61,707 bases of DNA from Candidatus Heimdallarchaeota archaeon (GTDB lineage Archaea; Asgardarchaeota; Heimdallarchaeia; Heimdallarchaeales; Heimdallarchaeaceae): NCBI GenBank assembly GCA_016840095.1, contig JAEOSZ010000058.1:1-61707 (forward strand), given 5' to 3'. The position numbers and the translations under genes were made by a program. This document shows positions 5,516-22,190 of the stretch, one piece after another (within the stretch, counting starts at the first letter, position 1; every line of letters begins with the position of its first letter). The notes beneath the pieces were generated by a model, which saw nothing but the letters and a program-made list of their open reading frames with translations, was not told the DNA's origin and did no database searches.

Positions 5516-6358
5516 ATGGAAATCAGAGAAAAAATCCCTCTCTTTCAGTTAGATTCCTTTAGTAATGAAGCATTTAGAGGAAATCCAGCTGCCGTGTGTT
5601 TAATAACAGAGGAATATGAGGATACAATCCTTCAAAAAATAGCAGCAGAGATGAATCTCTCTGAAACAGCTTTCATTTATGTAGAAGATTTTGACAAACT
5701 AGTTGATTCAGATACTTTCAGACTTAGATGGTTCACTCCTCAGATAGAAGTAAATCTGTGTGGTCATGCTACACTAGCATCAGCAGCTGTTTTGTTCAAT
5801 GAATATCAATTAAAAAGTGATCTTATTAAGTTTAAAACTTTGAGTGGAGAATTATTCGCAAGAAAGGTTGATGAGAAAATACAATTGAATTTTCCTTCAA
5901 CTGAAACAGAATCAATTGAACCTAATAATTCAATGCTTGAAGCACTTGGAATTGATGATTTTGAAGCATATACTTATTCAGAGGTTAGTCAAGATTTATT
6001 GATTCAAGTTAAAGAGTTAAACATTGTGAAGAACCTAACACCAGATTTCAGTGCAATGAAAGCAATAGACAATGAACAAAGAGTAAGAGGTGTAATTGTA
6101 ACATCTATTGGAGATAATACTTGCGATTTTGTTTCTAGATTTTTTGCTCCATGGGTGGGTATTAATGAGGATCCTGTAACTGGATCAGCTCATACACAGC
6201 TCCAACCATACTGGTCAAAGATATTGGGTAAAAATGAAATGAAGGCAAAACAAATCTCTAATCGAGGAGGAGAAGTTACTGTAAGAGCAACCCAAAATAA
6301 TAGAGTTGAAATAGAAGGAGATGCAAAGTTAGTACTCAAAGGGAATTTGTTCTTTTAG
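5516..6358 (+). CDS. PhzF-family isomerase
   Basis: GNPAAV, EMNLSETAF, RWFTPxxEVNLCGHATLA and EDPVTGSA motifs. Confidence 0.92.
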   Translation: MEIREKIPLFQLDSFSNEAFRGNPAAVCLITEEYEDTILQKIAAEMNLSETAFIYVEDFDKLVDSDTFRLRWFTPQIEVNLCGHATLASAAVLFNEYQLKSDLIKFKTLSGELFARKVDEKIQLNFPSTETESIEPNNSMLEALGIDDFEAYTYSEVSQDLLIQVKELNIVKNLTPDFSAMKAIDNEQRVRGVIVTSIGDNTCDFVSRFFAPWVGINEDPVTGSAHTQLQPYWSKILGKNEMKAKQISNRGGEVTVRATQNNRVEIEGDAKLVLKGNLFF

Positions 6359-6408
6359 TGCAGTTGATTTTGTATCAATTTAATATACTTCCTTTTTAAA
6401 TAACTGAG

Positions 6409-6433
6409 TGAAACATTGTGAATCAATGTTTCA
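6409..6433. promoter_or_regulatory. Perfect inverted repeat TGAAACATTG-N5-CAATGTTTCA (operator or hairpin)
   Basis: 10-bp perfect arms read directly from the 257-bp intergenic region upstream of the SDR gene. Confidence 0.5.
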
Positions 6434-6615
6434 ATAGTATAGGCGAATAACTAATACATTAATTAACTGTAATGGTAAAAAAACTGTTGAAATCTGTATT
6501 TCTGAACCTTGAAAACGCATTTTGTTGTAATTCTAAAAAATTAGAAATACATTTTTCCGTTCTTATAAATTCGTTTCACTGAACTGTATATAACTGCCGA
6601 TGTATCTGTTAACTT

Positions 6616-7638
6616 ATGAGAGTCTTACTCACTGGGGCATTTGGAAATGTGGGACAAAGTACTTTAGAGGTTTTACTTAGAAAGAAGTATTTTGTACGAT
6701 GTTTTGACTTAAAGAATCCTCGGAATCTGAAAATAGAAAAGAAGATGAAAAAACTAGGGGAGTTTGAAACCATCTGGGGAGATATTCGTGATTCAAGTAT
6801 ATCTGATGACTTGGTTAAAAATATAGATGTAATTATTCATCTAGCTGCAATTATACCTCCGTTAGCATATGAACAACCGGAATTAGCATATGCAGTAAAT
6901 GTTGGAGGTGCAACTAACATCTTACGTGCAGCAGAGGGCTTGAAAACACCTCCAAAATTGATTTACGCATCATCAATTGCAGTTCATGGTAACAGGATGG
7001 AATTTGAACCTCCTACTCAAATATCTGATCCTTTGATACCTCTTGATTATGATAATTATGCTCAACATAAAATGGAGATGGAAGAGAAAATAACAAAGAG
7101 CAATATATCGTGGACTATCCTGCGGTTTGCTGCAATTACTCCTTTTGAAATGGGGTGGAACGTTCCTGATATAATGTACGAAATTCCTCTGAAGCAAAGG
7201 ATAGAAGTTGCTGATACAAGAGATGTAGGTTTAGCATGTGCAAATGCTGTCGAAGTTGATACAGCTGGAAAAATTCTCTTTATTGGTGGTGGAATAGGGA
7301 ATCAGTTATACCAATTAGATTATGTTTCAAAAATGCTAGAAGCTCTAGGAATTGGTATGCTACCAGAAGAAGCATTCAAACCAGCAAAAAGTGTCGAAGA
7401 TTACTATCACTGTGATTGGATGAATACAGATGAAGCACAAAAATTACTAAAATTCCAAAGATACTCTTTTGAAGATTTTATCAGAGTATTCAAGAAGAAA
7501 ATTGGCTTCAAAAGATTTCTAGTAAAACTGTTTAAACCAACAGTTCGAGGAATTTTGTTAAGTAAATCCCCCTATTATAAAAAACAGAAAAAGAAACATT
7601 CTCATTATGATTCCAAAGGAAAACCATCCTTTGGTTAA
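6616..7638 (+). CDS. Extended SDR, NAD-dependent epimerase/dehydratase
   Basis: TGAFGNVG Rossmann motif, IHLAAI, YASS, YAQHK (YxxxK). Confidence 0.88.
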   Translation: MRVLLTGAFGNVGQSTLEVLLRKKYFVRCFDLKNPRNLKIEKKMKKLGEFETIWGDIRDSSISDDLVKNIDVIIHLAAIIPPLAYEQPELAYAVNVGGATNILRAAEGLKTPPKLIYASSIAVHGNRMEFEPPTQISDPLIPLDYDNYAQHKMEMEEKITKSNISWTILRFAAITPFEMGWNVPDIMYEIPLKQRIEVADTRDVGLACANAVEVDTAGKILFIGGGIGNQLYQLDYVSKMLEALGIGMLPEEAFKPAKSVEDYYHCDWMNTDEAQKLLKFQRYSFEDFIRVFKKKIGFKRFLVKLFKPTVRGILLSKSPYYKKQKKKHSHYDSKGKPSFG

Positions 7639-7750
7639 TTTTTTTTTCAATGGTAAGATATATATATCACTATTTGGCATCTAATTCAACAAAGCTAGTT
7701 TGAGTAACAGCTAATATTTCATAAAAACTATGTACCTAAATGGTGATAAA

Positions 7751-9637
7751 ATGAGCAAAGAAACAAAAAAAGAACTTGTTGTTGGAATTGATTTAGGAAC
7801 AACTAACTCAGGTATAGCATACATGGTAGCAGGTAAACCAGAGATTATTCCAAATATTGAAGGTGGAAGAATCACACCTAGTGTAATAACCTTCAATGAA
7901 GATGGAACTCGCACAGTAGGAATACAAGCTAAAAGACAAGCTATAGCCATGCCTGATCGAACAATAAGAAGTATAAAACGAAAAATGGGTACTGATTTTA
8001 AGTTTACAGTAGATGGTAAAGATCTTCGTCCAGAAGAAATTTCTGCTATGATACTATCAAAATTAAAAGAAGATGCTGAAGCTTATCTCAATCAAAAAAT
8101 TGAGAAGGCTGTAATAACTGTCCCAGCTTATTTCAGTGATTCACAGAGACAAGCTACAAAGGATGCAGGAGAAATAGCTGGTTTGGAAGTTTTGCGAATT
8201 GTAAATGAGCCAACTGCTAGTGCTCTTGCTTATGGTTTAGATAAAGCAGGTGCAGAAAGAGTTTTGGTATTTGATCTTGGAGGTGGAACCTTTGATGTTT
8301 CAATACTTGAACTTGATGAGGGATTATTTAGGGTAATCGCTACATCAGGAAACAATCTTCTAGGAGGAGATGATTGGGATCAAAGAATTATAGATCACAT
8401 TACTGAAGAATTCAAAAAGAAAGAAGGAATTGATTTAGCCAAAGATTCCAAAGTAGTTCAAAGACTAAAGGATGCTGCAGAGGAAGCTAAAATTGAATTA
8501 ACATCCAAATTAAGCACAAAGATTAGCCTACCTTATATTACTGCTGATGCTTCAGGTCCAAAACATCTTGAAATGGAACTTTCAAGAGCCAAATTTGAAG
8601 ATATGACTAAAGACTTAGTTGAGAAATGTGCAGGTCCTTCTAGACAAGCAATGAAGGATGGTAATATCAAACCTGGAGATCTTGACAAAGTAATCTTAGT
8701 TGGGGGTGCAACCCGAATGCCAATGATTAGAGATATGTCTAAGGAATTATTCGGAAAAGAACCTCACAAAGGTGTAGCTCCAGAAGAAGTTGTTGCATTA
8801 GGTGCAGCTGTTCAAGCAGCTGTTCTGGCTGGAGAAGTTAAAGACATTTTACTATTAGACGTAACTCCTCTAACATTAGGTGTAGAAACATTAGGTCAAG
8901 TTATGACTCCTATGATTGATAGAAACACAACTATTCCAGTTACAAAGAAGAAAGTTTACACAACAGCTGGAGATATGCAAACCTCAGTTGAAATTCATGT
9001 TCTTCAAGGAGAAAGAACAATGGCAGCTGATAATATTACACTTGGACAATTCCAGTTGGTAGGAATACCACCTGCACCTCGAGGAGTACCTCAAATTGAG
9101 GTTTCATTTGATATAGATGCAAATGGTATTTTACAGGTAGCTGCTAAGGATCTAGGCACTGGAAAAGAACAGACTGTAGTTATACAATCTTCACATTTAT
9201 CAGATGATGATATTGACAAGATGAAAAACGATGCAGAAAAATACAAGGAAGAAGATGAAAAGCGAAAAGCTATTATTGAAGCTAAGAATACTGCAGAACA
9301 AGCAATCTATTCGACTGAAAAAACAATCAAGGATCTTGGAGATAAAGTATCTGACAGTGAGAAGAAATCATTAGAGGAGAAAATGGAAGAACTGAAAAAA
9401 GAAGCTGAGACTGAAGATGCTGAAAAGATAAAAGCAAAAACAGATGAGCTTATGCAAGTAGTGATGCAAATTTCTCAAAGAATTTATCAAGAAACTGGAC
9501 AAGCTCCTGGTGCAGAACAACCAGAAGGTCAATATGGTCCTGGTGCTCCAGAAGCTCCTAGTGCTCCAACTCAACATGATATAGACGAAGAACAAGTTAT
9601 CGATGTGGATTATGAACCTGTAGAGGATGATGAATAG
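7751..9637 (+). CDS. dnaK: Chaperone DnaK (Hsp70)
   Basis: [40 protein letters not shown]. The ATG at 7751 follows a GGTGA SD-like element; the ORF track starts at 7730. Confidence 0.97.
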
Positions 9638-10891: not shown

Positions 10892-10943
10892 GTTGTTCCC
10901 TTTGTAGATACTTTTTTAATTTCTATTCTTCTATTATTTACTA

Positions 10944-11744
10944 ATGAGTGAAGAATTTGTACGTTGTCCAGAGTGTGGGAATTTAAACATCAAAGGAACT
11001 AAATTATGTGTTTTCTGTGATGCAGATGTTTTAGAAGCTGAAGTAGTTACTCACGAGGTTGAAGCTCCTCCTGAAATCGCTGAAATTCCATCTGCTGTAG
11101 ATACATCTCCTGGTACTCAAGAGGAAGCTGAAGAAGAACCAGTTGCTCCTAAAATGCCTGATTTTGACAAGATTGATACTCCAGCTGAAAAGAAAAAAGA
11201 GATTACTATTACTGATGCTGTTGGAAAGGAATATAGTTTAATTTCCAAATTATTGTTTATTTCACTCTTCACAATTATTGTTTCAATCATACATTATTCT
11301 ATTAACTTCTTAATAGCACTAGCTTCTATAGATTTTGATGCTGCTGCTAGAAGCTTAGACGTCATAACTTTTCTATCCAATATATTAGATAACATGTACA
11401 TCAGAGGTGTTTCATTATTACTTTGCATTCCATTTGCTATTTTAGTAGGATATGTTCTTGGAAAAATTGTAAGAAAATACACAACCTCAAAGAAGAGTAC
11501 AATCATTTGGGTTATTTTTAGTTATATTCTGAATGTTATTCTGAATGTGGTATTCACAGTTGCTCTAATCTTCATAACAGATGCTTGGAATAATAGTACT
11601 GTAATGTTTATCTGGATGGCTGGAGCTGCATTCATATTTGTAGTAACACTTGTAATAACTCTGTTTATACCAATGATTTCAGGATCCTTTCTTATCTTTA
11701 AAAATATAGACAAAGTATTCTTCAGAGGTAAATATACTGATTAA
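10944..11744 (+). CDS. Zinc-ribbon membrane protein
   Basis: CPECG...CVFC, acidic Pro-rich linker, about 4 TM helices. Confidence 0.7.
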   Translation: MSEEFVRCPECGNLNIKGTKLCVFCDADVLEAEVVTHEVEAPPEIAEIPSAVDTSPGTQEEAEEEPVAPKMPDFDKIDTPAEKKKEITITDAVGKEYSLISKLLFISLFTIIVSIIHYSINFLIALASIDFDAAARSLDVITFLSNILDNMYIRGVSLLLCIPFAILVGYVLGKIVRKYTTSKKSTIIWVIFSYILNVILNVVFTVALIFITDAWNNSTVMFIWMAGAAFIFVVTLVITLFIPMISGSFLIFKNIDKVFFRGKYTD

Positions 11745-11758
11745 GTAGTGGTGTAATT

Positions 11759-12196
11759 TTGGGTTTTGATGATAAATTTTCCAAATTTCTTAAACATGAA
11801 ATAGATTCAATAAATATGCATCTACCAAAGAAGAGAGTATCTCTGAGATTGGCTCTAGAAGGTTACAACTATTATATAAGTAAAGAAAATACCAAGCTAT
11901 ACATTGATAAAAATGAAGTAGAGTTAATTAGCTCTTTGTGTCCAGAAGAAAAAACTTCCTCTCTTCTTCTACCTATTTTAATTGTAAGAAGAAGGGATAT
12001 AGGACAAGGAACTTATGTCATTTCTGGTGAGTTGGTAGAGCAATATGTTGTGTTACTGGCATTAGACAAAATTAGTAAAGATTGGAAAACTTGGTTGAAA
12101 GAACAATCATCTTCAAAGGAAGTCTATCTTTACAAACCTGATTTAATTTCATTAAGAAAGAAACTTCCTACAAGCACTGTAATTGGTTTCTCATAA
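11759..12196 (+). CDS. DUF61/UPF0216-family archaeal protein
   Basis: EIxxINxHLPxxRxSL, LxLPI and C-terminal YKPDLxxLRKKLPTSTVIGF patterns; TTG start after GGTG. Confidence 0.75.
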   Translation: MGFDDKFSKFLKHEIDSINMHLPKKRVSLRLALEGYNYYISKENTKLYIDKNEVELISSLCPEEKTSSLLLPILIVRRRDIGQGTYVISGELVEQYVVLLALDKISKDWKTWLKEQSSSKEVYLYKPDLISLRKKLPTSTVIGFS

Positions 12197-12270
12197 ATGG
12201 AATGCAAATTTTCAAAGATATTCAAAGATTTTGAGAAAAGATTTTAACATTACATTGAAAAAGCATTATC

Positions 12271-13455
12271 ATGAATAAATATGCGATTTCAAAAGATAAT
12301 CATCTTAAAAGAATTGAGAAAATAAGAAATTTTATGGAAAAAGAAGAGCTTGGTTCTATGGTTTTCTTTAGTCCATTATCTATTTACTATCTAACAGGTT
12401 ACCACTTTATACCAACAGAAAGACCAATCTGTCTTGTTCTACCTATGTCTGAGGAACCTTGGTTCTATGTTCCTCGTTTAGAACAAGAACATCTTATAGA
12501 AAAAATTCCTTGGGTTGAAAGAGAAATATACTTTGAATACCCTGACAAAAAGCATCCTGCAAACATTTTCATTGATCGACTTGAAGAAAGGAAAGTAACA
12601 AGCTCAAAAATTGGTATGGAATCACCATCATTCTCTAGTTATTGGGGATATGAAGGGCCTAATCTAACGGAATTACTAGAAGGCAAAACTAAAACTGAAC
12701 TGTACCCAATCCTAATCAGAGAAATGAGGAAAATCAAGGATGATGAAGAACTCCGTTTGATCAGAATCTCAGCTAAATATGGTGATTTAGCTCACAGATT
12801 ATTACAGGAGTATACTGCTGAAGGTAAGAATGAAGTTGAGGTTTCTTTACAAGCTTGTAGAGAAGCTTCAGAAAAAATGCTTAATGATTTAGAAGGTTTC
12901 ATTCCTAGAGGTTTGCTTCCAGCTGGAGCTGGTTATAGAGGTCAAATAGGTGAATGGTCAGCTATACCTCATTCTGTAATTCAAAAAACTATTTTCAAAA
13001 AAGGAGATGTACTAGTAACAGGTGCTTCTGCTAATGTTTCAGGATATCACTCTGAACTGGAAAGAACAATGTTTATCGGACCTCCTGATGAGAAACAGAA
13101 AAAATACTTTGAAGCTATGAAAAAATCTCAAGATGCGGCTTTAGATGCATTTAAACCAGACATACCATGTAGCGAAGTTGATAAAGCAGCAATAAAAGTG
13201 CTCAAAGATGAAGGAGTGTATCATCTAGCTCAACATCACACAGGTCATGCTATAGGACTTGAAGGACATGAAGCACCTTTCTTAGATATTGGTGTTGAGG
13301 AGATACTAAAACCAGGAATGGTTTTAACATGTGAACCTGGAATATATGAGTACAAGTTTGGAGGTTTTCGACACTCTGATACTGTGATAATAACTGAAGA
13401 TGGTTCTGAATTAATTACTCCTTATCCAAGAGATCTTGATGATTTAATAATCTAA
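12271..13455 (+). CDS. M24B Xaa-Pro aminopeptidase/creatinase-family protein
   Basis: Creatinase N-domain, HHTGHAIGLEGHE, TCEPGIY, GFRHSDTV. Confidence 0.88.
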   Translation: MNKYAISKDNHLKRIEKIRNFMEKEELGSMVFFSPLSIYYLTGYHFIPTERPICLVLPMSEEPWFYVPRLEQEHLIEKIPWVEREIYFEYPDKKHPANIFIDRLEERKVTSSKIGMESPSFSSYWGYEGPNLTELLEGKTKTELYPILIREMRKIKDDEELRLIRISAKYGDLAHRLLQEYTAEGKNEVEVSLQACREASEKMLNDLEGFIPRGLLPAGAGYRGQIGEWSAIPHSVIQKTIFKKGDVLVTGASANVSGYHSELERTMFIGPPDEKQKKYFEAMKKSQDAALDAFKPDIPCSEVDKAAIKVLKDEGVYHLAQHHTGHAIGLEGHEAPFLDIGVEEILKPGMVLTCEPGIYEYKFGGFRHSDTVIITEDGSELITPYPRDLDDLII

Positions 13456-13466
13456 AATTTCTCTCT

Positions 13467-14387
13467 CTATTTTCTTTTTGTTAAGATAGTTATTTTATCC
13501 TCATTGATGAAAATAGTTTCCTCTTCTTGAGTTACTGGAGAATCTGTAGCTTCAACTAGTACTGGATAACCATGGACAATATTACGTTTTAGAAGAGATA
13601 GTTTTGTTTTATGTATTTTCTCTTTGGAAAATCCAGCATTATAAACCCATCTCCAGCTAAATGGTAATCCATGGAAATTCTCATCAATGTAGCGATAAAT
13701 CTCCCTGATTTGATTCGGAAGAACTGATGCATCAATCTCCCTATAGTGTCTGAAAATTGTTTCTTGTTCTGTGTCAACTACTCGACCAATACCTGATGTA
13801 ACAAACGGTTCAATTGCATAGGCATTTCCAGCTTTGAAAACATGTGAAGAATCCCTTGCTTCTTTTGAAACACTATAATTTGGAATTGATATACCATCAT
13901 GAAGAGAATAGTGTGACAATGAATGCCCACTTAGATTTACAATTGGTTTAAAGCCTTCTTTTTCAATAGTTTTTTGAACAATTTCTCCTACTTTGAAGAC
14001 GCTTTCATTTACTTTTACAATATCCAAGGCATCATTTAGAGCTTTCCGAGCCAAATCTTTCATTGGCTTCCACTTTTTGTCTAACACTATTGTTCTAGCT
14101 GCATCAGTCAGATAACCATCTACTGATACACCACAGTCAATTTTAACTATAGATTTTTCGGGAATAACACTTACATCTTGAATTGTTGGAGAGTAATGTG
14201 CTGCTATCTCATTGATAGAAATATTAAGAGGAAAAGCTGGTAATGCTTTATGTTTACGGATGTATTCTTCTGTTTGCTCTGCAATATCCAATAACTTCAT
14301 CCCCGGTTTTATAATGCTTTCAGCAAATTCGAGAGTCTTAGCTAAGATTTGTCCAGATTTTTCATATTTCTCGAATGAATTATCCAT
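13467..14387 (-). CDS. map: Methionine aminopeptidase type II
   Basis: AFPxNISINEIAAHYSP, KIDCGVSVDGYLTDAART, NLSGH, AIEPF, and the type II helical insert (LPF). Confidence 0.93.
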   Translation of the reverse strand: MDNSFEKYEKSGQILAKTLEFAESIIKPGMKLLDIAEQTEEYIRKHKALPAFPLNISINEIAAHYSPTIQDVSVIPEKSIVKIDCGVSVDGYLTDAARTIVLDKKWKPMKDLARKALNDALDIVKVNESVFKVGEIVQKTIEKEGFKPIVNLSGHSLSHYSLHDGISIPNYSVSKEARDSSHVFKAGNAYAIEPFVTSGIGRVVDTEQETIFRHYREIDASVLPNQIREIYRYIDENFHGLPFSWRWVYNAGFSKEKIHKTKLSLLKRNIVHGYPVLVEATDSPVTQEEETIFINEDKITILTKRK

Positions 14388-14443
14388 TGTTTTTCTACCT
14401 TGTTAGCTTCTAAACTTTGATATCTCATTTATTAGTTGTGCTT

Positions 14444-14863
14444 TTACCGATTTTTATTTTTGATTTGCCCTAGAGTGGAATAAAGAGTATCACCTATGAT
14501 TGTTGATATTAAAGTTGTTTTTGTATTTCCTCTTGTGCCAATAGTTTCAAAGAATCCAAGATCTCTTAGTTTTGTAATGTTCCATTTAGTAGTTGAAAAT
14601 GAAATATCCAATCGATCTGAGATAATCTCAGCTAATCTGTTAAGAGATGTTCTTTTTCTTTCTAGAAATCTATATCCTTCAAAGAAAATTTCTTTTTGTT
14701 TATCATTTAACTGCTCAAACAGTATGATCAAACTCTGATTAAGTAAATCAAACAAAAATAAGTTATCTTCTTCAAGTTTCCTTATCCTCTCTTGAGCAAA
14801 GGCTATCCCTTCTTCTAAATAGTCCAAGCCTTCCAGCTTTGCGGGATTTAACAAAACGTTCAC
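14444..14863 (-). CDS. Winged-helix DNA-binding protein (putative)
   Basis: SLNRLAEIIS..LDISFSTTKWNITKLRDLGFF HTH followed by a wing; divergent from the ATPase operon. Confidence 0.6.
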   Translation of the reverse strand: MNVLLNPAKLEGLDYLEEGIAFAQERIRKLEEDNLFLFDLLNQSLIILFEQLNDKQKEIFFEGYRFLERKRTSLNRLAEIISDRLDISFSTTKWNITKLRDLGFFETIGTRGNTKTTLISTIIGDTLYSTLGQIKNKNR

Positions 14864-15027
14864 CTATCATATTTTACACCTCTGCTTTGAGTTATGATAC
14901 TTCTTGCACTAACCCTTTTAATTTTTTCTACTTACAAGTAAGACATACTTTAAGAATGAAATACAACAGAGTCACTTTTGGTCAATTAAAATCTATAGCT
15001 TTAGTGAATATTATGAACATTCATAGA

Positions 15028-15075
15028 TTTTATAAGATACGGTTAATATTAACAGAATAGAATTAAAAGTGAGGT
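15028..15075 (+). promoter_or_regulatory. Putative promoter of the ATPase operon: TATA box, palindrome and SD
   Basis: TTTTATAA at 15028-15035, perfect palindrome GTTAATATTAAC at 15042-15053, GAGGT before the ATG at 15079. Confidence 0.45.
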
Positions 15076-15078
15076 CAA

Positions 15079-16842
15079 ATGAGTACTCAAGATTCGAATC
15101 TTTTCCTACCCTGCAATCCTGACGATTTTTATGGATCAAGGGATTTAATAAAAGATTTTACAGACATAACTGAAGAAATGAGCAAAGAAGGTGAAAAAAC
15201 TCATTCTATACTCGTTATAGGAGATGAAGGAACTGGAAAAAGCTCACTTCTAAAGAAATTATCAACATATATTCCTGTTAGGAAAGATGCATCTCATTTA
15301 TTTGATTTAGTTCCTGAAGAAGAAAATCTTCTCAACTTTTTCAAAGAATGGAAAAACATGATTGATGAACTGTCTCCAGCTTGGAGATCTGTTCTAGAAA
15401 AAGTAGGAAAGAAAAAACTTGGAGATGATCTTCCAGCTCTTAGAGATAAAATCAAAAAACAAGCATCTCAAACATACATAGAAACTTATGTTAATCTGTT
15501 TTTAGAAAGTCTGGATAAAGTAAATCAAAAATTAATGGAAACACAATCGACTTTGTATTTCTTTATTGATAATATACACTTATTCAAATTGATGGATATA
15601 CAGGAGTTCTATCCCATTTTTTCAACAATTATTAAGAAAATATCATCTAGAGGTTACAGATTAGTTGTAATCTCAGCTTTCACTAATCAATATCTTTTCG
15701 ATTTTGATTATGAAAAGAATTTAACTGAAAATTCAAAAATCTTCAGTATAAATCCTTTATCAGTTTCCGAAACTGAAATTTATTTGAGGAGAATTGCACC
15801 AGAATTTGTGAATAAAGGAATCTTAGAACTTGCAAATAACAGCCAAAGAAGCTTTTTTGATCTTAATCTAGGTAATTTCTTTGTCCAATCAGGATATGAA
15901 ATGGATGACTTTGTAGAACGAAATATACCAAAGATATTCGAATTAACCGATGAAGAAGAATCTGTTTTGGCTGAAATGGCTTCATATAATGAAAATTTGT
16001 TTCCAATTGAGCAAATAACTGCATATGTTCCATTAACTGCAATTAAGTCACTTGAAGAGAAAGGATTTTTATGGGTAGGAACGACTCATACACGATTAGT
16101 TCAAGAATCATTGTTAACAGCAATGAAATTTAGAATGCGATTATTTAGTCCTTTAACATCTTTAATGGTGGCTCTTGATACAATACTAGAAAATCTTGGA
16201 AAGCAAATTTCACCAACAGATAAAGCGATTGAAAAAGTAGGGAAACTATCAGAAAAGATTAGAGATAGACTTGCTGATTTTGCCGTTGCATCAAAGATTC
16301 AAAAAATAGCAAATATCTGTATAGAAAGAAAGATGTATCAAAAAGCATTTGACTTGACTTTGATAAATACAAAACAATTTGAGCAGATAAAAGAGCTAGA
16401 ACAAGCTGGAGCTTTTTGTGAAAGAATCGCGAGAGAATTTGAGGAGAAGAATTTCTATTTTGCAGCAAGACTTTACTTGAAATCCGCTTCCTACTACAAA
16501 GCAGTAGAAGAGGATCTTAAAGCAAATCGATCATATGCTCGAGCTGCAGATCAGTTTGAAAAACTTTCAGTATCTCTTCCAGTAGAAAAGAGCGAATATG
16601 CTGTTAGAGGATATCTAAAATCAAGCCTTGACTGCTATAAAAATATGGGAGATAAAAATAACTTTGACAGGTTGAGGAAGAAAGCAATTGAGCTGTTTGA
16701 TAAAGAGAGCATACATCATGATTATTTTACAAACATGATATACGAAAAAGAAGAGGAAGTAATAATTCCTGAAGAAGATCCAAAGCCAAAGGAAATAGAA
16801 GAAATTTCTATAGAAAATATTGAGAAAGAATTGGATTTTTAG
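15079..16842 (+). CDS. STAND/archaeal-ATPase-like P-loop NTPase with winged helix and C-terminal SNAP/TPR-like repeats
   Basis: FYGSRD N-motif, Walker A GDEGTGKS, Walker B YFFIDN, PLSVSE, wHTH (LTDEE...SLEEKGFL), repeats such as AARLYLKSASYY and ANRSYARAADQF. Confidence 0.7.
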   Translation: MSTQDSNLFLPCNPDDFYGSRDLIKDFTDITEEMSKEGEKTHSILVIGDEGTGKSSLLKKLSTYIPVRKDASHLFDLVPEEENLLNFFKEWKNMIDELSPAWRSVLEKVGKKKLGDDLPALRDKIKKQASQTYIETYVNLFLESLDKVNQKLMETQSTLYFFIDNIHLFKLMDIQEFYPIFSTIIKKISSRGYRLVVISAFTNQYLFDFDYEKNLTENSKIFSINPLSVSETEIYLRRIAPEFVNKGILELANNSQRSFFDLNLGNFFVQSGYEMDDFVERNIPKIFELTDEEESVLAEMASYNENLFPIEQITAYVPLTAIKSLEEKGFLWVGTTHTRLVQESLLTAMKFRMRLFSPLTSLMVALDTILENLGKQISPTDKAIEKVGKLSEKIRDRLADFAVASKIQKIANICIERKMYQKAFDLTLINTKQFEQIKELEQAGAFCERIAREFEEKNFYFAARLYLKSASYYKAVEEDLKANRSYARAADQFEKLSVSLPVEKSEYAVRGYLKSSLDCYKNMGDKNNFDRLRKKAIELFDKESIHHDYFTNMIYEKEEEVIIPEEDPKPKEIEEISIENIEKELDF

Positions 16843-18300
16843 GTGAGTAGGATGTCAGAAAGAATAACAAAAGATTTAGAAAAAGTAAAAAGAGAAATTG
16901 AAAATTTAGATAGTGAAATTGTAAATTTTAGGGAATCACTAGAGAATTTGCAGGAATTACATCAATTCTATCAGATTCTTGCAACTTTAGTTCAAAACAA
17001 GTTTATAGGTTTGAATGATAATCTACGCAATTTGATCGAATCAAACAAAGAATCATTAAATGAATTAATTGCAACTAATGTTGATGAAGAAAAGAAATTA
17101 CTCAGTGAATGGACAACCACACAAACAGATACTGTTGTAACAAAGTTGAATAATACCAAAGAACAATTAGCGGAGCTACAAGATTCAGTTTCCTCCATTC
17201 TTGAAGAAGGAAAAGTGAATTTTGAAGAATATTCCTCCTCTTTTGGAGAGAAAATTAGAAATACTCTGACAAACCATGAGCAAGATTTAGAACGTTTAGC
17301 AAATAACCAGGTAAATGCATTCAGAAAAGCAATTACAGGCGTAAAAGAAGATGTTAGTTCAGTAAGAGGAAATAATCTCTCTACTTTTAAGAAGAATTCA
17401 GATGATATGAGAAATCAGCTTGAATCAAATATTAATATAGCTCAAAACATCATGAAGGAATCAATAGAGCATTTAAGAGCCGAATATGGAGATAAATTAA
17501 CTGAAAACATGGAATCTGTTTTTGAGAGCTTTAACAGAATAAAAAGTGAATTAGGACAGCTTGTAAACAATGCTGTTCAAAGAATACAATCAGAATTATC
17601 AGATGTTACTGACTCAATGGACAAATATCTTGTTGATGAAATTGCAAAAGTGCAAGATGTTTTAGCTGAATATGAGACAGGAATGATTGATGTCAATGAA
17701 GTTGCAATGACTAATTTCAACACTTCAAAAGAATCAATGTTAAGCTCATATGATAGTTTAACAAACAAACAGTATAATACACACGATTCAGAACTTAAAG
17801 AATTTGAAAATGGTTTCACTGGAAAAGTAGATGAAATTCTTGCTACTCTCTCAGAACAGTCTGATTCTGTAAAACAAGAAATCAAATCCTTTGTGACTTC
17901 AGAACAAGATGATGTGAAAAATCATTTAGATGGTATATTAAATACAGTTGTAGATAAATCAGAAGAACTGAAGAGCAATGCTAAATCTACAGCTGATGAA
18001 AGAATTTCTGTTCTTGAAAATGAAATCGCTGATATCAAATCGTCGTTAGAAAGAACAAGTCAGCAAATCGTAACCAGAATAGATTCTACTCAGAGAGATA
18101 TTGTTGCAGATATTTCATCAATGTCTTCGAATGCTAAGAGCAAGATTGTGGAAACACAGGATTCAACTGTTTCTAATCTTGAAATAGAAGCAAAGGATAA
18201 TATCAAGAAAGCTGAGCAAGCTGAAAAATTAAGGAAGGATCTCTTAGGTCGTTTGGAAAGACTAGAGAGAAATCTGGAAACAATTAAAGATCAATTATAG
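16843..18300 (+). CDS. Long soluble hendecad coiled-coil protein (485 aa)
   Basis: No Pro, no TM segment, continuous 11-residue hydrophobic periodicity; GTG start directly after the upstream TAG. Confidence 0.75.
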   Translation: MSRMSERITKDLEKVKREIENLDSEIVNFRESLENLQELHQFYQILATLVQNKFIGLNDNLRNLIESNKESLNELIATNVDEEKKLLSEWTTTQTDTVVTKLNNTKEQLAELQDSVSSILEEGKVNFEEYSSSFGEKIRNTLTNHEQDLERLANNQVNAFRKAITGVKEDVSSVRGNNLSTFKKNSDDMRNQLESNINIAQNIMKESIEHLRAEYGDKLTENMESVFESFNRIKSELGQLVNNAVQRIQSELSDVTDSMDKYLVDEIAKVQDVLAEYETGMIDVNEVAMTNFNTSKESMLSSYDSLTNKQYNTHDSELKEFENGFTGKVDEILATLSEQSDSVKQEIKSFVTSEQDDVKNHLDGILNTVVDKSEELKSNAKSTADERISVLENEIADIKSSLERTSQQIVTRIDSTQRDIVADISSMSSNAKSKIVETQDSTVSNLEIEAKDNIKKAEQAEKLRKDLLGRLERLERNLETIKDQL

Positions 18301-18304
18301 GATA

Positions 18305-21300
18305 GTGAATAAAATGGAAGGAACATTAGATAAAATTGGTTTATCAAAGGATGAAGTTCAAGTATATTCAACCATTGTTCAATATGGATATAGAACAATT
18401 GGACAAATTCAAACATATTACAAACAGCCTGTGGATACACTCAGAGGAGCTTTGAATAGTCTTGTTAGTAAAGGATATATCAGAGAAATTAAAGCAAAAA
18501 ATCAAGAAGGAACACCGTATTTCATCCCACTACCACCACAAATCAAGCTTACTGAGGATGTATCTATTCGTTTAGAAAACGAACTAAAAGCGTTAAGCGA
18601 TGATGTGAAAGAAGATTGGAATAAGACTATGAGTAATTTCAGATCACAGTTATCAGCTTTTCACGATAAGATCACTGAAAATGTTGACGGTCATGCATCT
18701 GAAGTTGCTTTAATAACTAACAATTTTCTAGAATCACTAACAAATGTTGTCTCCACTGGAAAAAGTGAAACAGCTGAGATGTTTAATAGACTAAAAACTG
18801 AGACTTCTAATATCTCTGCAACAAATAGCGATGCTATTGGGAAAACAGCACAAAGAGTTAAGGAGAATGTGCTTAATTCTTTTGACTCAACTATTCATAA
18901 AATCGGAGAACACCATGAAGCTTTCAAAATAAAGGTGGAGGAAAGATTAGGTTTCCTACAAAAAGAACATGATGATCGAACACAATTACAACTTGATGCA
19001 GTTCTTGAAAAAGTTGAAGGGATAAAAGAAAGCTTATCAGTTCAACTTCAGGAATTCACAGTAGCTGCTGAAGAAAGAAAAAATGTTATAGTAAAAATTA
19101 CAGATGAAGCTTCTAAAAAAGCTCTAGCAGATTCAAACGTAGTTGCGAGAGATTCTTCAAAGAAACTTTCAGACACTGTAAATAAAATAGTAGGAAATTA
19201 TGAAACTAAGCTTGATGAATATCAAGAGAGAGTTCAACAAATACTCATTTCCCTAAATGACGAGCTGAAAAAACTTGAAGAAGCAACTACTGACAGAATA
19301 AGAACTTCTATTGACAAATCTAAAGAGACAGCAGTTACTATCTTGAAGGAAAATGAGAATCAATTTGTAGATTTACTGAATAAAACAAAAGTTGATTCAG
19401 TAGAAAAGTTAGGTGATTTAATTACACAAACTGAAGCAAAGACTGAAGAGATGAAAGTAAAGCTAAGCAATCATTTAACTTCTTATCTTAAAGATTTCAA
19501 AAAGAATAGTGACAATCTTCTCTCTCTCCTTAATTCAGGAATAGAAAATGGTTTCAATTTGTTTGAAGAAAATCTCTCTTCATCAATAGAAAATGTTAGT
19601 GCTCAAATTAAGCTTTTTGTTGATGATATAATGTCAGCATTCAAAGAATCTACTAATTCTTATCTTGAGAAATTATCAAAAACAACAAACAAATATGAAA
19701 AAGATCTCAAAACCAAACAAGAAACCTTTACAGCTGCTCATAATGAGTTTAAAAACAGCTTTACTTCTCATATCAATGAGTTGAAATCCACAGTTGTTTC
19801 TAACATTGAACAAAACGTCAAAGAAAATGATGAATCGATTAAAAGCAAAGTATCTGAAATCGAAACTAAGTTTAAAACTGAAGTTGAAATTTTCTCTGAT
19901 GATTTTGCAAAAAGAGGAAGAGATGTTAGAGATGAAGTACCCAATGTGGTTCAGATTAATTATCAAGCAAGCCTTGAAAGATTAAAAGAGTTAGATGATC
20001 AACTCAAATCAGCAATAGCTAAAATTGAAGTAATTAACCAAGCATTCCAAGGTCTAGATGAAAAACAACTTCAGAAAGTTTTTGGAAAAGATGAAGGACC
20101 TAGAATGGCTCAATTAATCGGAAGTATGCGAAGAGATATAGAGCTTGTAAAAGATAATGTTGGAAACAAAATGGATGAAATGATTCAGACCTTCACTAGC
20201 TCAATGAACACTTTATCAACTGAGATATTTGAAAAAATGAATGCAAGGTTAGAAGAACTTACCAGATTTACATCAAATACTCTTCAGACAACAGAACAAT
20301 CTCTTGAAAGTTCAAGAACTCAAATTAGTACTCAATTTAAAACTTCTTTAGATGAAATGAAGAAATCAGTAGAAGATACATACTCTACCTATGAGGAGCA
20401 GTTTAATGAACTGCAAGGAACCAGCACCAAAGCTTTAGCTGATGTAGTTGGTGCAGAGTCAAAAGCGTTTTCAGATGTTACTAAATCCATTCGAGAATCT
20501 TTGGAAGAACTTCTTAAACCTCCAGATTCAACTGAAGGTGAAGAGAACCAAACACAAATTCATCTAACAATTCAAGATGGTCTTAATGCTCTTCAAACAA
20601 CCAAACAAGACATCCTAGAACTGATGAAGAAAAACAATGTAGAAGTGACAACTAATCTTCAAGATACCCTTAAAACAAACATTGACGAACATTCCCAACT
20701 AGTAACTAAAACAACTTCCTCAATGGATGGAACAATGAAATCTCTGCAGGGTGAATTTGAATCTGCTAAAAAAGCGCTTGATACAGATGTGTCCGTTACT
20801 CTAGATGAAGCCGCTCAAAATTATAGTGTTCAAACTTCAAAAGTTGAAACTGAAATCAATGATTTAATTGAACAAGAAGTTCAGCAGTTCATAGAAGGCA
20901 CAGAAGGCGTTCTAGCTGAATTGAATGTATCACCAGAGAAATCATCACAGCTTGATGAAGCTCTAGCTGTCACTAAAGGAGAACTTCAAACACTTAGTGC
21001 AGATTATCCAAAGTGGGTAAAAACTGATTCAGATTCATTTACAAATAAACTGGGTTCTGCTATAAAGGAATTTCAAGGAACTGCTCAAACAGAAATAGAT
21101 ACAATGTTTACAGGTGTTCAAAATGATCTTGAAAAATCCTATGAAAGAATGTCAACAGACTTTACAAATAATGTTACAGAAATACAAAATGAATTCGAAA
21201 AAGAGAAAAATGACTATGAACTTAATATGACACATCAAGTTAATAGTTTTATCACTAATTCGGATTCTAATTCATCAGCTCTTGTTACCAATATTCAAGG

Positions 21301-22087
21301 AACAAAGGATGCACTTATTGAAGCAATAACAGCTGGAAATGATGCTGTTAATACTGATCTTAGTAATTTGGAGAAAACACTAACTGACTTATTCGATTCT
21401 TATCTAAGCTCTCTAACTGAGAAATTAGGTTCTATCCAAGAAGATTCTAAGGTTGTTGATGCAGAAAAAGATACTTACAGCTCAAAATTAATGAGATTCA
21501 AAGAAGATGTGATTAAAGGAACTCAACAAGAAGTTGAAAAAGTTGATACTAGTGTATCAGAAACTTTGAGTTCAATTCCAAATAAGATTAGCGGAGCATT
21601 AGATGCAACAGGAGAATCTATGAAATTGATCAAGAATGTTCTAACTCTTGGATCTGGTATAGAACCAAGTCCAATAGAGGATATGTGGATTGTTACTGGA
21701 AAAGAACAAGTAGATGGAACAATGATGTCTCTTTTAAGGAATACTAAATCCTCAGCTACTATTATATCTCCAAGAGTAAACTGGATAGATTCAGAGTTCA
21801 TTGATACTTTTGCAAGAAAACTAGAACTAGTTACTAATACAACAGCTCATACAGATGAAGACAAAGCCATTCTTGGTAAATTGCTTGGAATGGGAAACGT
21901 AGTAGTAAAAGATGATCCTAACCTTACCGTAATGATGGCTACAAGAGATGGTATTGAAGAAGGTTTCTTAGGTCATAAAGCTCCCAGTGGGGAACCTCTA
22001 CTCATTGTTACGTTTAATGAAGAGATGGTAAGGGAAATAACTAAGATTTACTATGATTTCAGAAGTAGAGCACCTATAAGACAATAA
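18305..22087 (+). CDS. TrmB-like HTH + about 1000-aa hendecad rod + TrmB/PLD-like C-terminal domain
   Basis: N-terminus LDKIGLSKDEVQVY...LNSLVSKGYI...YFIPLPP (TrmB HTH); C-terminus WIVTGKE...SATIISP...RDGIEEG (TrmB effector/PLD-like fold, no HKD motif). Confidence 0.75.
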   Translation: MNKMEGTLDKIGLSKDEVQVYSTIVQYGYRTIGQIQTYYKQPVDTLRGALNSLVSKGYIREIKAKNQEGTPYFIPLPPQIKLTEDVSIRLENELKALSDDVKEDWNKTMSNFRSQLSAFHDKITENVDGHASEVALITNNFLESLTNVVSTGKSETAEMFNRLKTETSNISATNSDAIGKTAQRVKENVLNSFDSTIHKIGEHHEAFKIKVEERLGFLQKEHDDRTQLQLDAVLEKVEGIKESLSVQLQEFTVAAEERKNVIVKITDEASKKALADSNVVARDSSKKLSDTVNKIVGNYETKLDEYQERVQQILISLNDELKKLEEATTDRIRTSIDKSKETAVTILKENENQFVDLLNKTKVDSVEKLGDLITQTEAKTEEMKVKLSNHLTSYLKDFKKNSDNLLSLLNSGIENGFNLFEENLSSSIENVSAQIKLFVDDIMSAFKESTNSYLEKLSKTTNKYEKDLKTKQETFTAAHNEFKNSFTSHINELKSTVVSNIEQNVKENDESIKSKVSEIETKFKTEVEIFSDDFAKRGRDVRDEVPNVVQINYQASLERLKELDDQLKSAIAKIEVINQAFQGLDEKQLQKVFGKDEGPRMAQLIGSMRRDIELVKDNVGNKMDEMIQTFTSSMNTLSTEIFEKMNARLEELTRFTSNTLQTTEQSLESSRTQISTQFKTSLDEMKKSVEDTYSTYEEQFNELQGTSTKALADVVGAESKAFSDVTKSIRESLEELLKPPDSTEGEENQTQIHLTIQDGLNALQTTKQDILELMKKNNVEVTTNLQDTLKTNIDEHSQLVTKTTSSMDGTMKSLQGEFESAKKALDTDVSVTLDEAAQNYSVQTSKVETEINDLIEQEVQQFIEGTEGVLAELNVSPEKSSQLDEALAVTKGELQTLSADYPKWVKTDSDSFTNKLGSAIKEFQGTAQTEIDTMFTGVQNDLEKSYERMSTDFTNNVTEIQNEFEKEKNDYELNMTHQVNSFITNSDSNSSALVTNIQGTKDALIEAITAGNDAVNTDLSNLEKTLTDLFDSYLSSLTEKLGSIQEDSKVVDAEKDTYSSKLMRFKEDVIKGTQQEVEKVDTSVSETLSSIPNKISGALDATGESMKLIKNVLTLGSGIEPSPIEDMWIVTGKEQVDGTMMSLLRNTKSSATIISPRVNWIDSEFIDTFARKLELVTNTTAHTDEDKAILGKLLGMGNVVVKDDPNLTVMMATRDGIEEGFLGHKAPSGEPLLIVTFNEEMVREITKIYYDFRSRAPIRQ

Positions 22088-22090
22088 TTA

Positions 22091-22121
22091 TTTTCTTTTC
22101 TCTTTTCTTTTCTTTTCTTTT
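22091..22121 (+). terminator. (TTTTC)n pyrimidine tract, putative operon terminator
   Basis: About 6 TTTTC units immediately after the stop of the 1260-aa gene. Confidence 0.55.
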
Positions 22122-22190
22122 GTTTATTAACGAGGGCACTTCTGTAAGATTTTTATTTATCAATGACAGATGTCTATATCAAAGGCGTAG

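Follow-up and report, generated by a model that had tools for sequence, protein, structure and literature searches.

We analysed a 61,707-nucleotide (nt) stretch of DNA from Candidatus Heimdallarchaeota archaeon, namely, contig JAEOSZ010000058.1 of the assembly GCA_016840095.1 (the window, hereafter), in which an operon of three co-oriented open reading frames (ORFs; 15079-16842, 16843-18300 and 18305-22087) occupies positions 15079-22087 of the forward strand. Gene 1 encodes a predicted effector-less STAND-like P-loop NTPase, gene 2 a symmetric coiled-coil rod built on an 11-residue (hendecad) periodicity, and gene 3 a TrmBL2-type protein in which a predicted DNA-binding head and a PLD-like C-terminal domain are split by ~1000 amino acids (aa) of hendecad helix that appears to fold back on itself. 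The three-gene operon is undescribed in the literature searched, and, as the original prediction for this DNA (made from its letters alone) had supposed, no matching characterised system was found in Pfam, NCBIfam, PADLOC, the PDB or that literature. The genes and features at the locus are the following.

14931..14942, either strand: palindrome CTTAC-AA-GTAAG, a perfect 5-bp inverted repeat in a block of the divergent intergenic region that is conserved in same-genus species
15018..15036, forward strand: promoter block CATTCATAGATTTTATAAG (BRE/TATA-like), 43 nt 5' of the ATG of gene 1 and almost unchanged across 7 same-genus species
15079..16842, forward strand: gene 1 (587 aa), a P-loop NTPase of AAA_16/STAND-like type; its C-terminal region is TPR-like, its tail is acidic and ends in KELDF, and it probably contains a winged helix
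15220..15243, forward strand: Walker A motif GDEGTGKS of gene 1 (residues 48-55); in alignment A1, G48, G51 and G53 are invariant and K54 is almost so
15553..15573, forward strand: Walker B strand LYFFIDN of gene 1, with D164 invariant and the following residue Asn in 9 of 14 homologues (A1)
16276..16758, forward strand: TPR-like helical repeats of gene 1 (~residues 400-560), with R510 invariant and weak Sec17/alpha-SNAP and feature matches
16852..18300, forward strand: gene 2, a hendecad helix of 482 aa that lacks proline and has heptad-like ends; two-fold symmetric, as a hairpin or an antiparallel dimer
17404..17745, forward strand: conserved core of gene 2 (113 aa, residues 185-298), its best-conserved part, at the exact protein midpoint
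18314..22087, forward strand: gene 3, a 1257-aa TrmBL2-like protein composed of a winged helix-turn-helix (wHTH), N arm, tip, C arm and PLD-like domain
18326..18514, forward strand: TrmB-type wHTH of gene 3 (Pfam PF01978 and 3qph matches)
18569..20074, forward strand: N arm of gene 3, ~500 residues of uninterrupted hendecad in constant phase, from the periodicity analysis
20075..20101, forward strand: apex tip KVFGKDEGP of gene 3, at the hendecad amplitude minimum (mirror centre 594, rod midpoint 586)
20102..21604, forward strand: C arm of gene 3, ~500 residues in which the hendecad falls into three to four phase blocks, with deletions matched to the N arm relative to sister genera
21683..22084, forward strand: C-terminal alpha/beta domain of gene 3, with a TrmBL2/TrmB-type PLD-like fold and no HKD histidine (AlphaFold2 and Foldseek)
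22088..22128, forward strand: (TTTTC)n T-rich tract directly after the gene 3 stop, archaeal terminator-like

The intergenic gaps of 0 and 4 nt given originally are those obtained from the first possible GTG starts; however, the N-termini of the homologues (MSERI... and ME(G/S)TL...) indicate that genes 2 and 3 really begin with the ATGs at 16852 and 18314, and the gaps then become 9 and 13 nt. The expectation of one promoter and one (TTTTC)n terminator agrees with the T tract after gene 3 and with the promoter block, which is kept together with the Shine-Dalgarno sequence GTGAGG (15069-15074) in the seven same-genus species, where the ATPases are 61-84% identical. By its sequence, the palindrome qualifies as a candidate operator, which may serve the divergent gene or be bound by the TrmB-type HTH of gene 3. 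Housekeeping genes, namely, those for GAPDH and two M24 peptidases, neighbour the operon, and the sequencing runs holding this stretch are of marine-sediment DNA only, with no RNA run listed.

The 11-residue periodicity proposed for genes 2 and 3 is evident in Fourier analysis, where the power at a period of 3.67 residues is 320 for gene 2 (maximum in shuffled sequences 116) and 496 for the rod of gene 3 (shuffle maximum 103), while gene 1 gives no 3.67-residue peak. Applying this period with a power >150 to all ORFs of at least 200 aa in the genome, we found only four hendecad proteins out of 2,185 ORFs, namely, gene 2, gene 3 and two shorter (~750 aa) paralogues of gene 3; the other coiled coils of the same genome are heptad-based. 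The rods follow an a/d-e/h-i register with hydrophobic fractions of 0.86, 0.39-0.61 and 0.53-0.44, respectively, and ~26% of their positions are hydrophobic. The hendecad phase of gene 2 is constant over approximately residues 25-460, the N- and C-terminal ends being heptad-like, and that of gene 3 is constant over residues 89-594, with a break at ~575-615 followed by three to four blocks up to ~1100. Since BLAST of gene 2 against gene 3 and of each against itself returned no significant paralogy and no internal sequence repeats, the periodicity does not come from recent tandem duplication. Also in line with the earlier reading, the rods contain no transmembrane (TM) segments, the highest 19-residue hydropathy mean being below 0.8, and Pfam and NCBIfam gave no SMC-family match at E-values up to 1.

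The two ends of gene 3 identify it as a TrmBL2-type, predicted DNA-binding protein, as judged from profile matches and a structural model. Its N-terminus matches the Pfam family PF01978 with an E-value of 3.4e-8 (33.7 bits against a cut-off of 25.6) and residues 10-103 of Pyrococcus furiosus TrmB (3qph) with an E-value of 0.0015. The C-terminal domain was modelled by AlphaFold2 with a pLDDT >90 in its globular part, and the best Foldseek matches of this model are TrmBL2 (5bpd/5bpi/5box, E-values 5e-9 to 2e-8) and TrmB (2f5t, 1.4e-6, and 3qph), followed by PLD-fold proteins, which bears out the PLD-like cap assigned to gene 3 at the outset. This likeness emerged only by the fold search, as comparing the profile of the C-domain with the PDB by sequence returned nothing meaningful. 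In the alignment of the last 190 residues of gene 3 from 20 orthologues (A2), E55, K78, R144, D145 and E148 are invariant but no histidine is conserved; thus, the domain is not an HKD enzyme. The sugar-binding beta-barrel is absent, as gene 3 ends ~130 residues into the PLD-like domain and the alignment to 2f5t spans 146 columns compared with 233 residues. The wHTH and the C-domain are separated by ~1000 aa of hendecad helix in place of the short single linker helix of the TrmB family, and the earlier description of gene 3 as a TrmB-family protein with an overgrown linker therefore holds: PF01978 is matched above its cut-off, 3qph is matched as well, and the C-terminal fold is of the TrmBL2 type.

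The same description took this linker to be a single helix of up to ~150 nm if fully extended; however, paired indels, mirrored conservation and a break at the midpoint all point to a fold-back of ~75 nm instead. Relative to its sister genera in family f1, the source genus lacks 117 aa behind residue 435 in the N arm and, in the C arm, 115 aa behind residues 724-732. In family f20, the deletions in gene 3 are of 33, 40, 33 and 33 aa and are symmetrically nested about one centre, and in family f23 the N arm is short by 334 aa and the C arm by 315 aa. The conservation of gene 3 is mirrored about residue 594, with r = 0.64 (463 residue pairs) when aligned at the family level and 0.55 at the order level, compared with 0 +/- 0.2 at other candidate centres. 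The apex itself is marked by the minimum of the hendecad amplitude and a Gly/Pro cluster at residues 592-593, and a hydrophobic-FGK tip motif lies ~10 residues or less from the rod midpoint in 13 of the 20 orthologues. These five independent lines of evidence (three sets of indels, mirrored conservation and a marked apex) indicate that the gene 3 helix pairs in an antiparallel manner with itself. As the break at the apex favours a hairpin over an extended antiparallel dimer, the most likely form of gene 3 is an intramolecular hairpin with ~500 residues per arm, a length of ~75 nm and the FGK motif at its tip, and in such a fold-back the wHTH and the PLD-like domain would meet at one end.

Two moderately conserved patches were also seen in the rod of gene 3, at residues 361-420 and 781-840 (~19394-19573 and ~20654-20833). 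As they are equidistant from the apex, they would face each other in the hairpin, where they could serve as an elbow or bind a partner.

The two paralogues of gene 3 in the source genome, of 747 and 754 aa (6047-8290 and 5768-8032, respectively, in the numbering of their own loci, each on the reverse strand), have the same wHTH, rod and PLD-like C-domain. The 747-aa paralogue adjoins a gene for an RFC/Rad17-like AAA+ protein, and the 754-aa paralogue a gene for an EndoIII-like HhH-GPD protein. Two other Asgard genomes encode 4-6 proteins each with the gene 3 C-domain, in open frames of ~326-1545 aa; thus, in Asgard archaea, proteins combining a TrmB head with a hendecad rod make up a family of multiple paralogues.

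Gene 2 is a second hendecad rod, with antiparallel two-fold symmetry and a conserved central core. This core lies no more than 12 residues from the protein midpoint in 27 homologues of 425-770 aa, including proteins of families f5 and f15 that were outside the training set of the hidden Markov model. When the arms alone are considered, conservation is mirrored about residue 246 (r = 0.73), and the indels of gene 2 are multiples of 11. AlphaFold2 modelled gene 2 as two helices (residues 2-242 and 250-481) joined by a loop at residues 243-249 (17578-17598), with a pLDDT >90 in the arms. Foldseek of this model returned nothing at an E-value of 0.001 or below, the weak matches being to long hairpins only. 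The rod would be ~36 nm long if it is a hairpin, and ~70 nm if it is an antiparallel dimer.

Gene 1 is, judging by its motifs, an effector-less STAND-like NTPase with the features of a nucleotide switch. The P-loop part of the originally proposed P-loop NTPase-wHTH-TPR/SNAP architecture is well founded, as Pfam AAA_16 is matched with 37.7 bits against a cut-off of 32.6 and the Walker A motif is conserved, while nSTAND1 and NACHT stay under their cut-offs; the winged-helix, TPR and SNAP parts, on the other hand, correspond to weak matches only. Specifically, the C-terminal region has marginal Sec17/alpha-SNAP profile matches (1qqe, E-value 0.029; 9cru, E-value 0.035; residues 439-506), and the feature-level search returned generic TPR/SNAP clusters, all below 0.9, and a weak WHD_MalT match at 0.81. 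The Asn that follows D164 in most of the homologues indicates that the second Walker B acid is not conserved. Pfam detected no N-terminal effector domain in gene 1 and no recognisable DNA-binding output domain other than the possible winged helix. In a profile search of 1.84 billion representatives, its nearest relatives outside the family were generic AAA_16/nSTAND1/ATPase_2 proteins. Complex prediction for residues 275-587 of gene 1 with full-length gene 2 gave an ipSAE of 0.00 in both runs, a value that counts neither way. The C-terminus of gene 1 (16780-16839) consists of an acidic Pro-containing linker followed by KELDF, which is found in all family-f1 ATPases and not in other families, and this tail may be a docking peptide.

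The operon is Asgard-restricted, single-copy and vertically inherited, and its divergence is in step with taxonomy. The ATPase, which is single-copy in the source genome, occurs in all 30 genomes of its own family and in 15 of 16 genomes from three other families of the order, the missing one being an 80%-complete assembly. Across the phylum it was found in 83 of 301 genomes, always with a length of ~570-630 aa, and a search of three large families recovered it rarely or never (1/76, 1/68 and 0/19 genomes). The profile search mentioned above yielded ~36 clusters at E-values <1e-30, and all named homologues are of Asgard origin, labelled as Heimdall-, Hermod-, Wukong-, Hel- or Sif-archaeal, or as 'Promethearchaeota'. 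The co-conservation that the original prediction required was found in 20 loci from nine families, where the order ATPase, rod 1 and HTH-rod 2 is kept. Variants of the cassette occur as well: in family f5 the ATPase is accompanied by a 718-aa gene-2-like rod, with a 1538-aa gene-3-like gene 8-18 kb away, and in families f29 and f30 the ATPase is accompanied by a gene-3-like rod and gene 2 was not found.

The lengths of the two rods behave differently in these loci. Gene 2 is fixed within lineages at 479-487, 717-721 or 767-770 aa, whereas gene 3 ranges from 1176 to 1812 aa within one family, which makes a co-extensive heteromer of genes 2 and 3 unlikely. We therefore rejected the idea that the length of gene 2 is matched to the arms of gene 3. 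A match between the arms of gene 2 and those of the ~750-aa paralogues was also considered; it fits the source genome, but fails in lineages with a 770-aa gene 2.

Of the proteins of known structure, TrmBL2 (5bpd, 5bpi, 5box and 5bqt) and TrmB (3qph and 2f5t) are most like gene 3, in that a wHTH is followed by a helix and by a PLD-like C-domain without the HKD motif, and TrmBL2, like gene 3, lacks the sugar-binding barrel. Gene 3 differs from TrmBL2 in its fold-back hendecad insertion of ~1000 aa, in its operon with a STAND-like NTPase and a second rod, and in being Asgard-specific. As TrmBL2, a nucleoid protein, assembles into stiff filaments and stalls Smc-ScpAB (PMC11840125), a chromatin link is suggested for gene 3 by analogy.

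The long antiparallel fold-back coiled coil with matched arms, and the termini joined at a head that is here predicted to bind DNA, are also reminiscent of SMC, Rad50 and MukB, and the AlphaFold2 model of gene 2 weakly resembles the arms of Rad50, the MukB elbow and Smc5/6. However, gene 3 has no ABC ATPase head, hinge or zinc hook, carries an FGK tip, and is hendecad rather than heptad; the ATPase of this operon is a separate STAND-like protein; and a canonical SMC hinge is encoded elsewhere in the source genome. Gene 1 resembles the STAND NTPases (AAA_16/nSTAND1/ATPase_2/MalT) in its Walker A motif, its invariant Walker B Asp and, probably, a helical or winged-helix region and TPR-like repeats, but differs from them in the absence of an effector or output domain, in the unconserved second Walker B acid, and in forming its own small family of ~36 clusters, always beside hendecad rods. 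KfrA-type plasmid proteins share with gene 3 an HTH head and a long coiled coil, for which a cytoskeleton-like role has been proposed (PMC7821693, in excerpt); they are bacterial and plasmid-borne and have an HTH of another family, and the comparison is one of descriptions only, the excerpt describing no fold-back, C-terminal PLD-like domain or STAND partner. Finally, the tails of ZorA and the peripheral stalks of rotary ATPases, for which hendecads have been described (PMC6131620), have the same 11-residue periodicity, and weak matches to ZorA, V-ATPase G and F-ATPase b' were obtained; however, these matches are below the cut-offs and cover coiled-coil segments only, and the rods have neither a membrane domain nor a rotary ATPase context.

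Taken together, we infer, with a probability of roughly 45%, that the operon encodes a DNA-anchored coiled-coil scaffold or nucleoid tether gated by a nucleotide switch. In such a system, the head of gene 3 would bind DNA as TrmBL2 does and project a rigid arm, struts or connectors could be provided by gene 2 and by the arm tips, and gene 1 might be a slow nucleotide switch whose oligomerisation or TPR-tail binding assembles, clusters or releases the rods. We would only tentatively extend this to an Asgard-specific chromosome machine, in which DNA-bound TrmBL2-type heads bear rigid fold-back arms that measure tens of nanometres, the second rod cross-links them, the effector-less STAND switch gates the assembly, and the nucleoid is thereby organised or tethered, for example to the membrane or the cytoskeleton via the FGK tips; this fuller picture is the less probable of the two. 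Several points count against a scaffold or tether. An antiparallel dimer would give the same symmetry as a hairpin for both rods; the apex of the gene 2 model has a pLDDT <50 and falls within the best-conserved region; the winged-helix and TPR assignments in gene 1 come from weak sequence and feature-level matches; the two gene 3 paralogues have no STAND neighbour, meaning that the rods do not strictly depend on the ATPase in cis; and TrmB-family proteins are often plain transcription factors.

The last point leads to a transcription-regulatory module, in which gene 3 would be a TrmB-type repressor or activator, maybe autoregulating via the palindrome, gene 1 a MalT-like co-regulator, and the rods devices for oligomerisation or DNA looping. 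The wHTH scoring above its cut-off, the conserved CTTAC-AA-GTAAG upstream and the weak WHD_MalT feature match are what such a module would predict, and MalT-type STAND proteins are transcription activators. We nevertheless regard it as unlikely, since a ~1000-aa rod with evolutionarily matched arms is hard to explain for a simple regulator, gene 3 stops after the PLD-like subdomain as TrmBL2 does and has no sugar-binding barrel, and, apart from its possible winged helix, no output domain for DNA binding could be recognised in gene 1. Alternatively, gene 1 could be an NSF/SNAP-like remodelling machine whose TPR/SNAP-like tail grips bundles of genes 2 and 3 and disassembles them by ATP hydrolysis. 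That the neighbouring genes encode long helical bundles would suit this idea, as would the Sec17/alpha-SNAP matches (E-value 0.03) and the SNAP/TPR feature clusters, but the SNAP matches are marginal and inseparable from generic TPR similarity, gene 1 is STAND-like rather than a double-ring AAA+ unfoldase, and no catalytic acid is conserved in its Walker B; we therefore give this explanation little weight.

Equally improbable in our view is the architecture favoured by the original prediction, that is, either a co-extensive rod or filament of up to 150 nm in which genes 2 and 3 form a heteromer, or a scaffold that binds lipids or membranes in the manner of apolipoproteins. Both rods are indeed hendecad, operon-linked and TM-free, and the FGK tip is basic and hydrophobic, but besides the length mismatch described above, each rod has its own internal mirror symmetry, and either rod is absent from some cassettes. 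As for lipid binding, PF07464 (ApoLp-III) is matched by gene 3 with 42.4 bits against a cut-off of 36.3; this match, however, is split into four stretches and looks driven by the periodicity, while PF01442 (Apolipoprotein), with 53.7 and 82.9 bits, stays under its cut-off of 90. The ~26% of hydrophobic positions form a narrow a/d-e/h-i stripe as in a coiled coil, which is likewise at odds with a lipid scaffold. The suggestion of an Avs- or Zorya-like anti-virus defence or signalling complex triggered by the STAND protein fares worst, and we consider it very improbable: gene 1 does have the layout of a STAND-like NTPase with a repeat sensor, and PADLOC and NCBIfam match genes 2 and 3 to ZorA tails and LmuB coiled coils, but these matches cover coiled-coil tails only and are far under the curated cut-offs, the MotA/ExbB-type TM domain of ZorA is absent from genes 2 and 3 according to NCBIfam, PADLOC and hydropathy, and gene 1 has no effector domain. 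Furthermore, defence fits poorly with a single-copy, vertically inherited operon that sits among housekeeping genes, tracks taxonomy and is present in every searched genome of the order but the 80%-complete one.

Among known prokaryotes, Asgard archaea are the nearest relatives of eukaryotes; the organisation of their DNA and cell interior is, to our knowledge, poorly understood. The operon is both conserved and lineage-defining, and its architecture is unusual in bringing together what resembles a chromatin-protein head, SMC-like hendecad fold-back arms, a second symmetric rod and an apparent effector-less switch. Should the operon prove to scaffold or tether the nucleoid, it would represent a novel type of DNA-organising machine, tractable as three soluble proteins, and a non-SMC solution to long-range DNA scaffolding in these relatives of eukaryotes. 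The analysis also shows 'sugar-specific regulator TrmB', 'SbcCD ATPase' and similar database labels to be in need of correction, and it illustrates that, with nothing but sequence at hand, signatures of matched indels and mirrored conservation can reveal fold-back rods.

In families f3 and f4, a co-oriented gene for a ~730-745-aa membrane protein with HEAT repeats or an Rce1-like domain lies directly 5' of the ATPase gene, at the following positions in three loci.

12316-14556, reverse strand: upstream membrane protein, co-oriented with the ATPase
10938-13121, reverse strand: upstream membrane protein, co-oriented with the ATPase
11772-14000, reverse strand: upstream membrane protein, co-oriented with the ATPase

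We considered this HEAT/Rce1-like gene as a component of the system, and set it aside since it is missing at that position in the source family.

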